Both the position numbers and the translations under genes were made by a program. The notes beneath the pieces were generated by a model that searched no databases, was not told the origin of the DNA, and saw only the letters and a list, made by a program, of their open reading frames with translations. Source: an uncultured Thermoleophilia bacterium (GTDB taxonomy: Bacteria > Actinomycetota > Thermoleophilia > Gaiellales > Gaiellaceae). Taken from it: DNA of 64,000 bases. Position 1 is the first letter of the stretch. Each line of letters begins with the position of its first letter. The stretch spans positions 4,398-68,397 of the forward strand of contig CAVUKP010000012.1 in assembly GCA_963742135.1 (NCBI GenBank), in the 5' to 3' direction. Positions 17,276 to 23,251 of the stretch are shown here, piece by piece.

Positions 17276-18226
17276 CTAGACGCGAAACTCGACGCGGAGC
17301 CTCGACCGTGGTGCGCCGCCGTCGGTCGTGTGGCGCGCCCGCCCGCCCGCGGCTCGCACGCGCTCGCGCAGCGCATCGGCCGCGCGCACGTACTCCCTCG
17401 CCGCACCGGGCTCGAGCGCCGCGCCGTCCTCCTCGACGACCGCCGCGACGACCCCCTCCGACTGCTCGAGCAGAACGCGGACACGCGTCGCGTCGTGCTC
17501 ACCGGCCCACGCCACCGACTCCTGCACGACGCGGTAGAGCGCGGTCTCGACGGCCGGGTCGAGCCTGCCGTTCCAGCCCGAGGTCTCGAGGTCGACGCGC
17601 AGGGGCGTCTGCTCCGATGTCGTCGCGGCGAGACGCTCGACGGCCGCCGCGACGCCGAACTGCGCCAGCGCCGGCGGCCGCAGCTCGACCGCGAGCTCGC
17701 GCAGCTTCTGGATCGTCTCGCGCATCAGCTCGCGCACCGCCGCGTCCGCGGAGGCCTCGTCGTCGTTCGCGGCCGATTCGCGCGCGCCGAGGGCCATGAG
17801 CGCGCTCGTGAGCGTCTGCGCGAGCTCGTCGTGCAGCTCGAATGCGACCCGCTCGCGCTCGCGCTCCTGGTCCTCGATCATCGCCCGCACCGCCGCGCGC
17901 TGGCGCTCGACCCGACGCGCGAAGACTCCAGCGGCGCCGACGACCGCCGGCCAGACCGCGACGGCGACGACCTGACCGGCGCCCCAGCCGTCGGCGAAAC
18001 CGAAGACGAGCGCGCCGACGAGCGCCACCAGCACGCCGTCGACCGGCCCGAAGACGACGGCGACGGTGCCGCCGATCGCAGCCGCGACCGCACCCGGTAT
18101 CCCGGCCACGGAGGCGCTCGACGGCACGGCGAGCGCGACGAGCGCGGCGGCCTCCGCGACGATCGCGAGCGCGACGCCGGCAAGCCTGCGTGCCGCGAGG
18201 GTCGAGAGCCGGAACCGCATTCGCAA
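17276..18226 (-). CDS. sensor histidine kinase (HisKA_3 / NarL-partner type), no adjacent response regulator
   Basis: 316 aa. The N-terminal half is hydrophobic. H-box ERERVAFELHDELAQTL. C-terminal HATPase-like region. Confidence 0.8.
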   Translation of the reverse strand: MRMRFRLSTLAARRLAGVALAIVAEAAALVALAVPSSASVAGIPGAVAAAIGGTVAVVFGPVDGVLVALVGALVFGFADGWGAGQVVAVAVWPAVVGAAGVFARRVERQRAAVRAMIEDQERERERVAFELHDELAQTLTSALMALGARESAANDDEASADAAVRELMRETIQKLRELAVELRPPALAQFGVAAAVERLAATTSEQTPLRVDLETSGWNGRLDPAVETALYRVVQESVAWAGEHDATRVRVLLEQSEGVVAAVVEEDGAALEPGAAREYVRAADALRERVRAAGGRARHTTDGGAPRSRLRVEFRV

Positions 18227-18348
18227 ATGATCACGGAGTTTCGGCGGCCGCCGTCCGTGAATCTGCGGATCTGCGGGGGGCGACCCTCTCTCGCGGCCGC
18301 GTGGGTCGAGCCGCAGGACACGGAGGCGCCGTCGGTAGAGTCAGCCGG

Positions 18349-18576
18349 ATGGCGACCGTCCGCATCCTCTACTGCCCTGTCTGAAGCGGCTACGACCGGC
18401 GGGCCGCGAGTCTCGCGGCCGAGTTGAACGTGAGCGGGCATTCGGCCGAGATCGTGGAAGGCGAGAAGAGCCAATTCGACGTGCTCTCCGACGGCGACCT
18501 CGTCTTCTCGAAGCAGCGGGAGGGACGGTTCCCCGAGCCTCACGAGGTCCTCGCCGCCCTCGGCGAGGCGTCGTGA
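18349..18576 (+). CDS. SelW/Rdx-family selenoprotein candidate (75 aa, Sec encoded by TGA at 18382..18384)
   Basis: My translation is MATVRILYCPV-U-SGYDRRAASLAAELNVSGHSAEIVEGEKSQFDVLSDGDLVFSKQREGRFPEPHEVLAALGEAS. It has a CxxU motif after beta-1 and the family signature FxV...G.LVFSK...GRFPE. The reading frame stays open 64 codons past the TGA. It ends in a GTGA overlap with the next gene. Confidence 0.75.
18402..18420 (+). promoter_or_regulatory. SECIS-like hairpin downstream of the in-frame UGA
   Basis: GGCCGCG-AGUCU-CGCGGCC, a 7-bp stem whose apical loop contains GU. The stem begins 17 nt after the UGA. Confidence 0.5.
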
Positions 18577-19085
18577 GCGGAGGCCCGGCGACCCGTCGCC
18601 CACTGCGCCGGCTCGGCGTGCTGCTCCTCCCGCTCTTCGCGCTCTCCGCCGCATCGTGCGGCGGCGACGGAGGCGGCGGCACGACGGCCGCCAAGGAGCG
18701 GCCCCGGCTGACCCAGGCGCAGCTCGTCGAGCAGGCGAATCAGGTATGCATCCGCTCCGACCGGCGCATCTATCGGATCGGCAGCCTCGGCCGCGATCCG
18801 CTCCCGTGGCGCAAGACGCGTGACGCAGCGTCGACGGCGATCGCGGAGATGAAGACGCTGCGGCCTCCGGCGGCGAAGGAGAAGCAGTTCGATCAGCTCG
18901 TAGCGGCCGGGCAGCGTCTCCGCACCGCGATCGCACAGGTGCACGACGCGCTCGTCGCGAAGACGTTCGACAAGGCGCGCGAGGCGCAGGGGGACGCCGT
19001 CCGCGAGGACGCCACGATCAAGCGGCTCGCGCGCTCTCTCGGCCTCACGTTCTGCGAGCAGCTGCTGACGAACTGGCCCGCGTGA
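18573..19085 (+). CDS. hypothetical lipoprotein
   Basis: 170 aa. Lipobox LSAASC. The GTG start overlaps the upstream stop (GTGA). Confidence 0.6.
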   Translation: MSGGPATRRPLRRLGVLLLPLFALSAASCGGDGGGGTTAAKERPRLTQAQLVEQANQVCIRSDRRIYRIGSLGRDPLPWRKTRDAASTAIAEMKTLRPPAAKEKQFDQLVAAGQRLRTAIAQVHDALVAKTFDKAREAQGDAVREDATIKRLARSLGLTFCEQLLTNWPA

Positions 19086-22810: not shown

Positions 22811-23251
22811 GTGACCACAGCCGCGGTCGTGATGACCGTCGTCGCGGGTCTCGCAGGCTCGGTGCAGGTAGCGGTTATGGGGCGGTTCGGGGAGCGGATC
22901 GGCGTCATCGAGGCACTGACGTTCGCGACCGCGATTCAGCTCGCGCTGGCGGCCACGATCCTCGTCGTCGCGCGGTCGGGCGTCGGTGGGCTCGGCGACG
23001 CATTCCGGTCACCGCTCTGGATGTGGCTCGGCGGGGCGATGGGTCTCACGGTCGTCTTCACGATCACGTTCGCGCAGCCCCGCATCGGCGCCACCGCGAC
23101 GATCGGGATCCTGATCGCCGGCCAGCTCGTGATGGGTGCGGTGATCGACCGGTTCGGCCTGTTCGGCGTCACGCAGTACGCGATCTCGTGGCCCCGCGCG
23201 CTCGGCATTCTCCTGCTCGGCGTCGGCGCGGCGCTGTCGCTGGTTCGCTGA
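22811..23251 (+). CDS. DMT-superfamily small membrane protein (DUF606-like)
   Basis: ORF 22721..23251. The GTG at 22811 is preceded by AGGAG. About 5 TM segments. Confidence 0.6.
   Translation: MTTAAVVMTVVAGLAGSVQVAVMGRFGERIGVIEALTFATAIQLALAATILVVARSGVGGLGDAFRSPLWMWLGGAMGLTVVFTITFAQPRIGATATIGILIAGQLVMGAVIDRFGLFGVTQYAISWPRALGILLLGVGAALSLVR

Follow-up and report, generated by a model that had tools for sequence, protein, structure and literature searches.

The stretch of DNA examined here, hereafter the window, is 64 kb long and comes from the 72% G+C genome of an uncultured Thermoleophilia bacterium (source assembly ENA ERZ25039581, contig_30771). Our analysis centred on a short gene at 18349..18576, which very probably encodes a selenocysteine (Sec)-containing protein of the Rdx (SelW/SelT/SelH) family. 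The gene starts with an ATG at 18349 and reads MATVRILYCPV up to an in-frame TGA at codon 12 (18382..18384); beyond this codon, the same frame runs through SGYDRRAASLAAELNVSGHSAEIVEGEKSQFDVLSDGDLVFSKQREGRFPEPHEVLAALGEAS—63 sense codons in all—to a second TGA at 18574..18576 (Table 1). The GC content by codon position in the ATG frame is 0.69/0.45/0.89, and the third-position value (GC3) is 0.90 on both sides of the internal TGA—the coding signature of a 72% G+C genome. In a mechanical list of open reading frames (ORFs), the first 11 codons appear only as the tail of a 180-residue junk ORF (17842..18384), and a separate 50-residue ORF (18424..18576) starts after the TGA. A preliminary description, made from the sequence of the window, had already reported the ATG, the MATVRILYCPV peptide, the internal TGA, the junk-ORF tail and a stop within a GTGA overlap with the next gene, and all of these could be confirmed, the overlap being with the GTG of the ORF at 18573..19085. 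It had also given the continuation as 64 more codons; the frame is indeed open, but that figure counts the stop.

Table 1. Features of the selenoprotein locus and its surroundings, with positions in the window.
Feature	Position	Strand	Description and basis
Predicted SelW-like/Rdx selenoprotein coding sequence, complete	18349..18576	+	75 residues (MATVRILYCPVU...GEAS) plus stop; translation, family models
Cys9, TGC	18373..18375	+	Resolving cysteine of the CxxU motif C-P-V-U
Predicted Sec codon, TGA (codon 12)	18382..18384	+	TGA in 86/86; aligns with the Rdx CxxC/CxxU position
Candidate bacterial Sec insertion sequence hairpin, GGCCGCG-AGUCU-CGCGGCC	18402..18420	+	7-bp G+C stem; loop AGUCU at 18409..18413, with G18410 and U18411
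C-terminal family motif LVFSKQREGRFPE, residues 51-63	18499..18537	+	Family alignment; matches the same motif in 2LJK and 3DEX
Terminating stop, TGA	18574..18576	+	GTGA overlap with the GTG start of the next gene
-10-like promoter hexamer TAGAGT	18336..18341	+	7 nt before the ATG; TANNNT match
Downstream gene, lipoprotein-like	18573..19085	+	170 residues; N-terminus RR...LLLPLFALSAASC (also as RR...LLLPLFALSAASCGG); ORF
HisKA_3-type histidine kinase gene, divergent	17276..18226	-	316 residues; Pfam HisKA_3, 45.3 bits

Family and fold of the encoded protein

The preliminary description had placed the protein in the Rdx family, an assignment borne out by searches with hidden Markov models (HMMs), for which U was replaced by C in the window protein. 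Pfam PF10262 (Rdx) scored 44.2 bits against a cutoff of 22.6 and covered residues 3-70, and the segment after the TGA, taken alone, still reached 31.7 bits, above the same cutoff. Likewise, the NCBIfam model TIGR02174 (CXXU_selWTH, for SelT/SelW/SelH) gave 40 bits against a cutoff of 34.2. The equivalog model NF041051 (SelTWH_Campy) was not reached; because its 57 bits lie below the cutoff of 88, the protein is related to the Campylobacter-type subfamily but stands outside it. Moreover, a profile of close homologues run against the sequences of the PDB retrieved human MIEN1 (2LJK, E = 8e-5) and Streptomyces SAV_2001 (3DEX), with the FSK...G.FP motif in alignment. MIEN1 (C17orf37) presumably carries Cys, not Sec. 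Within the family alignment, the Cys and Pro of the CxxU motif are invariant columns, as are S54, K55, R60 and P62 of the C-terminal motif, with G59 nearly so.

A fold model was obtained with AlphaFold2 for the protein P0001, a natural TGT variant that is 76-77% identical to the window protein. The model has a predicted local distance difference test score of 92 and the topology beta1-(CxxC)-alpha1-beta2-beta3-beta4-alpha2; placed on it, the CxxU motif of the translation (C9-P-V-U12) comes directly after strand beta1. When the model was compared with the PDB using Foldseek, the top 23 matches were all SelW-related or Rdx proteins—ordinary thioredoxins came only after them—beginning with 2P0G, at a template modeling (TM) score of 0.85, and continuing with 2FA8, 2OBK, 2OJL, 3DEX, 2OKA, MIEN1 and mouse SelW (2NPB). 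The P0001 model therefore shares the thioredoxin-like beta-alpha-beta-beta-beta-alpha fold of solved SelW-related proteins, with TM scores of up to 0.86. Six solved bacterial members of the family, namely those of V. cholerae (2P0G), A. tumefaciens (2FA8), P. fluorescens (2OBK), B. parapertussis (2OJL), P. aeruginosa (2OKA) and S. avermitilis (SAV_2001, 3DEX), adopt the same fold as the model, with query-normalised TM scores of 0.79-0.86 and root-mean-square deviations of 1.5-1.9 Å over 70-76 columns. These proteins also agree with the window protein in the position of the redox motif and in the FSK...G.FP motif, at an identity of only 24-31%. The deposited bacterial structures are, we assume, Cys-containing forms, unlike the window protein with its predicted Sec at the second redox position. 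Mouse SelW belongs to the same family and has the same thioredoxin-like fold, with a weaker structural likeness (TM 0.67). Eukaryotic SelW also has a CxxU motif, but its Sec insertion sequence (SECIS) lies in the 3'-untranslated region and is of a wholly different type, built on a kink-turn quartet (PMC1088965). The HMM scores, the profile matches in the PDB, and the model with its Foldseek neighbours together establish the protein as a member of the Rdx/SelW-like family, a group whose function in bacteria has been described as unclear (PMC1088965).

Conservation of the internal TGA and of the hairpin behind it

The orthologue set (n = 86) consists of the window, 80 genome loci and five metagenome contigs. 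The genome loci come from a scan of one genome per GTDB species and are the best 80 of at least 472 genomes with a match to the search pattern; this pattern, the peptide YDxRAASLAA, overlaps the peptide encoded by the hairpin described below, so that Cys forms lacking the hairpin would be under-sampled. Protein identities within the set reach down to about 64%. These best 80 genomes are metagenome-assembled genomes (MAGs) labelled Gaiellales, Gaiellaceae, Thermoleophilia or Actinomycetota, with a sole exception titled 'uncultured Alphaproteobacteria bacterium' (L012, CAVVUW010000012.1, MFD03975.bin.1.169). This genome has a Gaiellales-type gene with 76% identity and the same TGA and hairpin on a 485-kb contig, and its label is probably wrong. 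A further MAG, MFD06714.bin.2.143, has two copies of the gene on separate contigs (L021 on CAVTYN010000001.1 and L047 on CAVTYN010000003.1), both of the CPT-U-SSYDV subtype; these could be a paralogue pair or a redundancy from binning or assembly.

The internal TGA is present in 86/86 sequences, all of which retain a conserved frame downstream, and the 11 codons before it are kept in frame with the rest in every one. Not a single orthologue among the 86 ends at the TGA with a dead frame behind it, in agreement with the reading of this codon in the preliminary description. Downstream of the hairpin, the entropy by codon position is 1.04 for the third position against 0.67 and 0.62 for the first and second, the median pairwise ratio of nonsynonymous to synonymous substitution (dN/dS) is 0.42 over 3,469 pairs, and, within the FSKQREGRFP block, variation is concentrated in the third codon position, the first two being nearly fixed. 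By these measures, the frame after the TGA evolves as coding sequence under purifying selection. The stop codon proper is TGA in 47 orthologues, TAG in 32 and TAA in seven; the gene in the window therefore has one recoded and one terminating TGA. Moreover, TGA is not reassigned in this genome, because it serves as an ordinary stop elsewhere in the window—where it ends 19 of 37 confident ORFs—as well as at the end of this gene.

Database searches also returned four sense variants at the Sec codon: TGT in L086 and L087, AGA in L088 and TTA in L089. Each lies one substitution away from TGA, and all of these codons are rare here, with usages of 8% for TGT (Cys), 0.8% for AGA (Arg) and 0.1% for TTA (Leu). 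The variants are found on metagenome contigs of 0.6-2.3 kb, the sole recorded coverage being 1.46x (L088), and probably reflect errors in sequencing or mutations of very recent origin. The hairpin is intact in three of the four; in L086, the stem is weakened by one A-to-S and one A-to-V change, which fits decay after the loss of Sec in this single case. Three other same-frame TGA junctions with high GC3 in the window, at 23249 (+), 9817 (-) and 56427 (-), were rejected as selenoprotein candidates: two of them are the ends of complete genes (DMT_YdcZ then EamA; TetR then DAGK_cat), and the third has no family on either side. A scan of 1.6 Mb for a TGA followed by a bacterial SECIS (bSECIS) pattern yielded 82 Rdx sites and 10 junk-frame matches.

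The hairpin starts 17 nt after the UGA, with 24 nt between UGA and loop, and recurs together with the TGA in all 86 sequences; because of this recurrence, the combination is far beyond what chance would produce. On its own, it folds with a minimum free energy (MFE) of -14.7 kcal/mol (z = -3.6), and none of 200 shuffled sequences was as stable; folding programs add an A-U pair, giving a stem of 8 bp and a GUC triloop. The bSECIS consensus comprises a loop of 3-9 nt, an upper stem of 4-16 bp, a G in the first two loop positions (N1-G-[G|U]-N-N2), a UGA-to-loop distance of 16-37 nt and an MFE of -7.5 kcal/mol or lower (PMC13188914). With a 5-nt loop, a stem of 7-8 bp, and the spacing and energy given above, the element agrees with all four of these criteria, and the loop A-G-U-C-U fits the consensus, its A and U being able to pair. 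The SECIS candidate of the preliminary description—a GC hairpin 17 nt after the UGA with GU in its loop—is thereby upheld. As in the bSECIS of the E. coli fdhF type, the stem-loop lies inside the ORF just after the UGA and presents G and then U early in a small apical loop (PMC13188914). The window hairpin bears no primary-sequence likeness to described SECIS elements. Its 7-8 bp G+C stem is perfect and lacks the bulged U that the fdhF SECIS contains.

Decoding of the TGA and the rival explanations

We hold with high confidence that the product of 18349..18576 is a cytoplasmic thiol/selenol oxidoreductase of the Rdx family, 75 residues long, with the active site Cys9-Pro-Val-Sec12, and, judging from the comparative evidence, the in-frame TGA almost certainly encodes Sec. 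The Sec-containing thiol oxidoreductase of the preliminary description is thus supported by the HMMs, by the TGA in 86/86, by the bSECIS criteria and by covariation in the stem (see below). In the mechanism that we propose, a leaderless mRNA, specified by the -10 box 7 nt before the ATG, would be translated from its 5' AUG. At the UGA of codon 12, the hairpin 17 nt downstream would act as the SECIS, its loop A-G-U-C-U presenting G-U; the C-terminal winged-helix domain of SelB would bind it and deliver Sec-tRNA(Sec), the product of SelA acting on Ser-tRNA(Sec) with selenophosphate. Sec would then be inserted instead of termination taking place, and translation would go on to the TGA stop at 18574. 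The product would fold in the thioredoxin-like manner, beta1-(CxxU)-alpha1-beta2-beta3-beta4-alpha2, and the Cys9/Sec12 pair would cycle between the selenol/thiol state and an intramolecular selenenylsulfide, presumably while reducing a substrate.

The leaderless start is suggested by the upstream regions of the family. In 81 of 84 distinct orthologue upstream regions, the last base of a TANNNT hexamer lies 6-9 nt ahead of the start codon (ATG or GTG); the background probability of such a hexamer at that spacing in the window is 0.0022. A Shine-Dalgarno (SD)-like motif occurs in one of the 84 and not before the window gene. Because of this placement of the -10 hexamer and the near absence of SD motifs, the mRNA of the gene family is probably leaderless, starting at or next to the start codon. 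In that case, the transcript would carry its Sec-UGA 33 nt from the 5' end. A scan for E. coli-type promoters and terminators found nothing.

As for the Sec machinery, selA and selB are present in the order Gaiellales. We took the SelB of Rubrobacter xylanophilus (PMC1794560 supplement) against 50%-identity representatives, with high-GC picks made by amino-acid composition, and ran a profile search. The first database search with the Rubrobacter protein had returned Rubrobacteraceae only; one of the high-GC representatives proved to be an NCBI SelB from a Thermoleophilaceae MAG, and P0439, P0462 and P0470 are named by NCBI 'selenocysteine-specific elongation factor [Gaiellales bacterium]'. Through four SelB proteins, selA-selB operons were located on six Gaiellales-type contigs (L090-L093, L095 and L096), which come from ERZ25039520, ERZ25039488, ERZ25039539, GCA_035696365.1 and two JGI metagenomes. 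The Gaiellales SelA scores 504.7 against a cutoff of 267.9 with TIGR00474, and SelB 338 against 242.25 with TIGR00475; SelB also carries the SECIS-binding WHD domain PF09107. In these operons, selA and selB overlap by 4 nt (L090, 8706..12768), and the gene order is conserved: a VanW-domain gene, selA-selB, a family-less ORF of about 250 residues and peptidase M3.

Several results weigh against the proposed decoding or leave it with less support than it might have. Neither selA, selB, selD nor tRNA-Sec was found in the 64-kb window or in the approximately 1.5 Mb of orthologue flanks by ARAGORN and by tblastn, with approximate E. coli SelA/SelB/SelD sequences and the published Rubrobacter SelA/SelB/SelD as queries; recurring weak SelD-like matches (E 0.07-7) lay in or near enoyl-CoA hydratase genes and were set aside as noise. 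An Rfam gathering scan of the window returned tRNA-Arg only. Beside selA-selB, ARAGORN and Rfam found no tRNA-Sec in flanks of up to 10 kb, and for selD the negative result applies to the window and the flanks just mentioned, no wider search of Gaiellales having been made. Furthermore, the four SelB look-ups all fell in assemblies other than that of the window (ERZ25039581), and none placed selA-selB in one genome with the gene. Of the machinery that the preliminary description had named as a check, selA and selB therefore stand at the level of the order, but not in the window or its flanks, and selC was not found. With regard to the hairpin, an Rfam E-value scan of 18300..18620 detected no SECIS family, only chance matches to miRNAs and small RNAs on the opposite strand; this outcome is expected for a lineage-specific bacterial SECIS, but leaves the hairpin without independent model-based confirmation. 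Finally, five of the seven stem pairs never vary. They fall on positions 1 and 2 of Ala codons that the protein fixes, and the support from covariation consequently rests on two pairs. We nevertheless infer that Sec, rather than another residue, is inserted, and that a complete machinery would be encoded in this genome.

The rival that survives best, though we consider it very improbable, is a read-through independent of any SECIS, in which the hairpin would slow termination and a near-cognate Trp, Cys or Arg tRNA would yield a CxxW, CxxC or CxxR protein. Stable downstream structures can stimulate read-through in general, and this account could draw on the Cys, Arg and Leu sense variants in the databases and on a Sec machinery located here in other assemblies. 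However, each of these variants has a rare codon a single substitution from TGA and sits on a short contig, with a coverage of 1.46x in one case, and they look like errors or recent mutations and not like a stable state; selA and selB are present in Gaiellales; and the loop, invariant down to a rare AGT codon, fits the SelB-recognition pattern exactly, a fit that simple read-through would not need. In addition, the TGA occupies the position at which members of this family, defined by CxxU/CxxC, have their redox Sec or Cys (PMC1088965).

Less probable again is that the gene callers are right—that is, translation stops at the TGA after 11 codons, and an internal GTG or TTG (18424 or 18430) starts a second protein of 48-50 residues. 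The ORF at 18424..18576 does exist, and fragments of 48-53 residues are called by the source assembly, ENA and NCBI. Such a fragment would nevertheless lack beta1, the redox motif and half of alpha1 of a fold confidently predicted as one unit, and the Rdx HMM aligns over residues 3-70. The 11 upstream codons stay in frame throughout the 86 sequences, the conserved -10 box precedes the upstream ATG or GTG and not the internal start, and the putative internal start codons lie in a variable region, with codons +13 to +16 after the TGA differing among sequences.

A third possibility, to which we attach very little weight, is that the hairpin has no function as RNA and is a by-product of coding R-A-A-S-L-A-A with GC-rich codons. 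The element does coincide with the codons for A-A-S-L-A-A, in the N-terminal part of helix alpha1, preceded by the third base of Arg18; GCG, GCC and CTC are preferred codons, and the five invariant pairs on Ala codon positions mentioned above are compatible with this account. The choice of codons already contradicts it. GCG-AGT-CTC, which forms the top of the stem and the loop, is invariant in 80/80 distinct sequences, although AGT accounts for 2 of 492 Ser codons (0.4%) in the genes of the window, and the third positions of GCG (+8) and CTC (+10) are synonymous, yet do not vary. Moreover, two stem pairs placed on synonymous third positions covary. Pair 33-51 (alignment A2) is G-C in 76 sequences, A-U in four, C-G in one and unpaired in one, and pair 36-48 is C-G in 62, U-A in 11, U-G in seven and unpaired in two, with the compensating states spread over several clades. 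Across the stem, 99.5% of cells are paired and 16 show compensatory double changes, a result matched by 0/500 shuffles, and slid controls were 29-58% paired. On a neighbour-joining tree of the rest of the gene—a noisy one, the gene being short—U-A appears in seven separate clades, U-G in seven, A-U in two and C-G in one. The weakened stem of the Cys variant L086, with its peptide changes, also speaks against a mere by-product, as a single case. Finally, a pseudogene or an assembly or sequencing error, in which a CxxC Rdx gene with TGC or TGT suffered a nonsense mutation or a miscall, is effectively refuted and hardly credible: TGA is one substitution from either codon and TGT variants do occur in metagenomes, but TGA stands in 86/86 independent assemblies at identities down to about 64%, the downstream frame is under purifying selection and followed by a dedicated conserved hairpin, and a single shared contaminant is at odds with the many sites at which related assemblies differ.

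The genomic neighbourhood adds little to the picture of the selenoprotein gene. The lipoprotein-like gene downstream is probably translationally coupled to it, and its product matched no Pfam family. The same neighbour adjoins the Rdx gene in 8/86 loci (the window, L001, L002, L006, L008, L010, L054 and L066) and is a partner in one sub-clade only, not a general one. The divergent kinase gene adjoins the Rdx gene in 3/86 loci; in Pfam, its product matches the HisKA_3 dimerisation domain only, no HATPase_c domain was found at E <= 0.01, and the ATPase domain may be divergent or absent. Because these neighbours are kept in only 8/86 and 3/86 loci, no functional inference is drawn from them.

Annotation, known relatives and implications

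The preliminary description had called the gene unannotated and had held that standard gene callers would miss it. In the source assembly, the full-length gene is indeed not called, but a 48-residue fragment after the TGA is; NCBI and ENA relatives are likewise called as fragments of 48-53 residues. At JGI, in contrast, full-length calls spanning the TGA exist and many relatives are already labelled 'predicted Rdx family selenoprotein', so that both statements apply to the source assembly, NCBI and ENA and fail for JGI. A protein search gave 509 relatives in two classes: post-TGA fragments of 48-53 residues, and full-length proteins in which the position of U is taken by C, W, G, R or L. Among the JGI proteins, P0002, P0004, P0005, P0008, P0011, P0020, P0021 and others have W or G at the Sec position. 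In L003 (10001..10222), the sole W case inspected at the DNA level, the codon is TGA; by analogy, TGA probably underlies the remaining W and G residues of the JGI translations as well. An additional W closes some of the JGI proteins, such as P0011 with '...KRLGW', and the final codon of L003 is again TGA. The W and G residues at the Sec position look like artefacts of TGA translated as sense, and they could mislead alignments. More broadly, ENA and NCBI annotation of Gaiellales MAGs, the assembly of the window included, systematically truncates this gene to a 'hypothetical protein' of 48-53 residues, and the same problem probably affects the at least 472 species-level genomes that match the search pattern. 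A simple rule would recover the gene: CP[VT]-TGA, followed by the GCGAGTCTCGC hairpin.

In the Sargasso Sea data, the SelW-like CXXU proteins, with 48 genes, outnumbered every other selenoprotein family, and SelW-like selenoproteins occur in several bacterial genomes, very few Cys homologues being known in Sec-using organisms (PMC1088965, PMC1794560). The gene described here matches this published picture in every tested respect. Like its bacterial counterparts, it encodes a small single-domain protein of about 75-80 residues with CxxU straight after beta1 and has its SECIS hairpin in the coding region immediately after the UGA; few or no stable Cys forms are seen among close relatives, as reported for SelW-like proteins (PMC1088965, PMC1794560). 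It differs from described members in its lineage—Gaiellales (Thermoleophilia, Actinomycetota), abundant soil bacteria—in a SECIS that is almost invariant across the order and in an apparently leaderless mRNA. In the literature that we searched, there was no paper on selenoproteins in Gaiella, Gaiellales or Thermoleophilia, and nothing relevant on leaderless selenoprotein mRNAs. The novelty is therefore limited to the lineage, the order-wide fixation of the TGA, the near-invariant SECIS and the probable leaderless mRNA; nothing in the protein family, the CxxU motif or the type of SECIS departs from what is well established, and no new mechanism is involved.

Tentatively, and with more doubt than confidence in the whole of it, we suggest that the selenoprotein is fixed across Gaiellales, with no stable Cys lineage in the 86 sequences, and that its mRNA has no leader, the Sec-UGA being codon 11-12 and the SECIS falling in the first 75 nt or so. 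Should the start indeed be leaderless, the gene would offer a natural example of SelB-dependent recoding on a 70S-initiated transcript without a leader, as well as a nearly invariant and compact cassette for Sec insertion in high-GC Actinomycetota. In these soil bacteria, the SelW-like protein, rather than FdhA or SelD, may maintain the Sec-decoding trait, which would then be an exception to the rule stated in PMC1794560. The value of the finding lies mainly in the correction of annotation and in the selenium biology of soil Actinomycetota: Gaiellales, widespread and poorly cultured members of this group, are indicated to use Sec and to require selenium for one or more conserved redox proteins.

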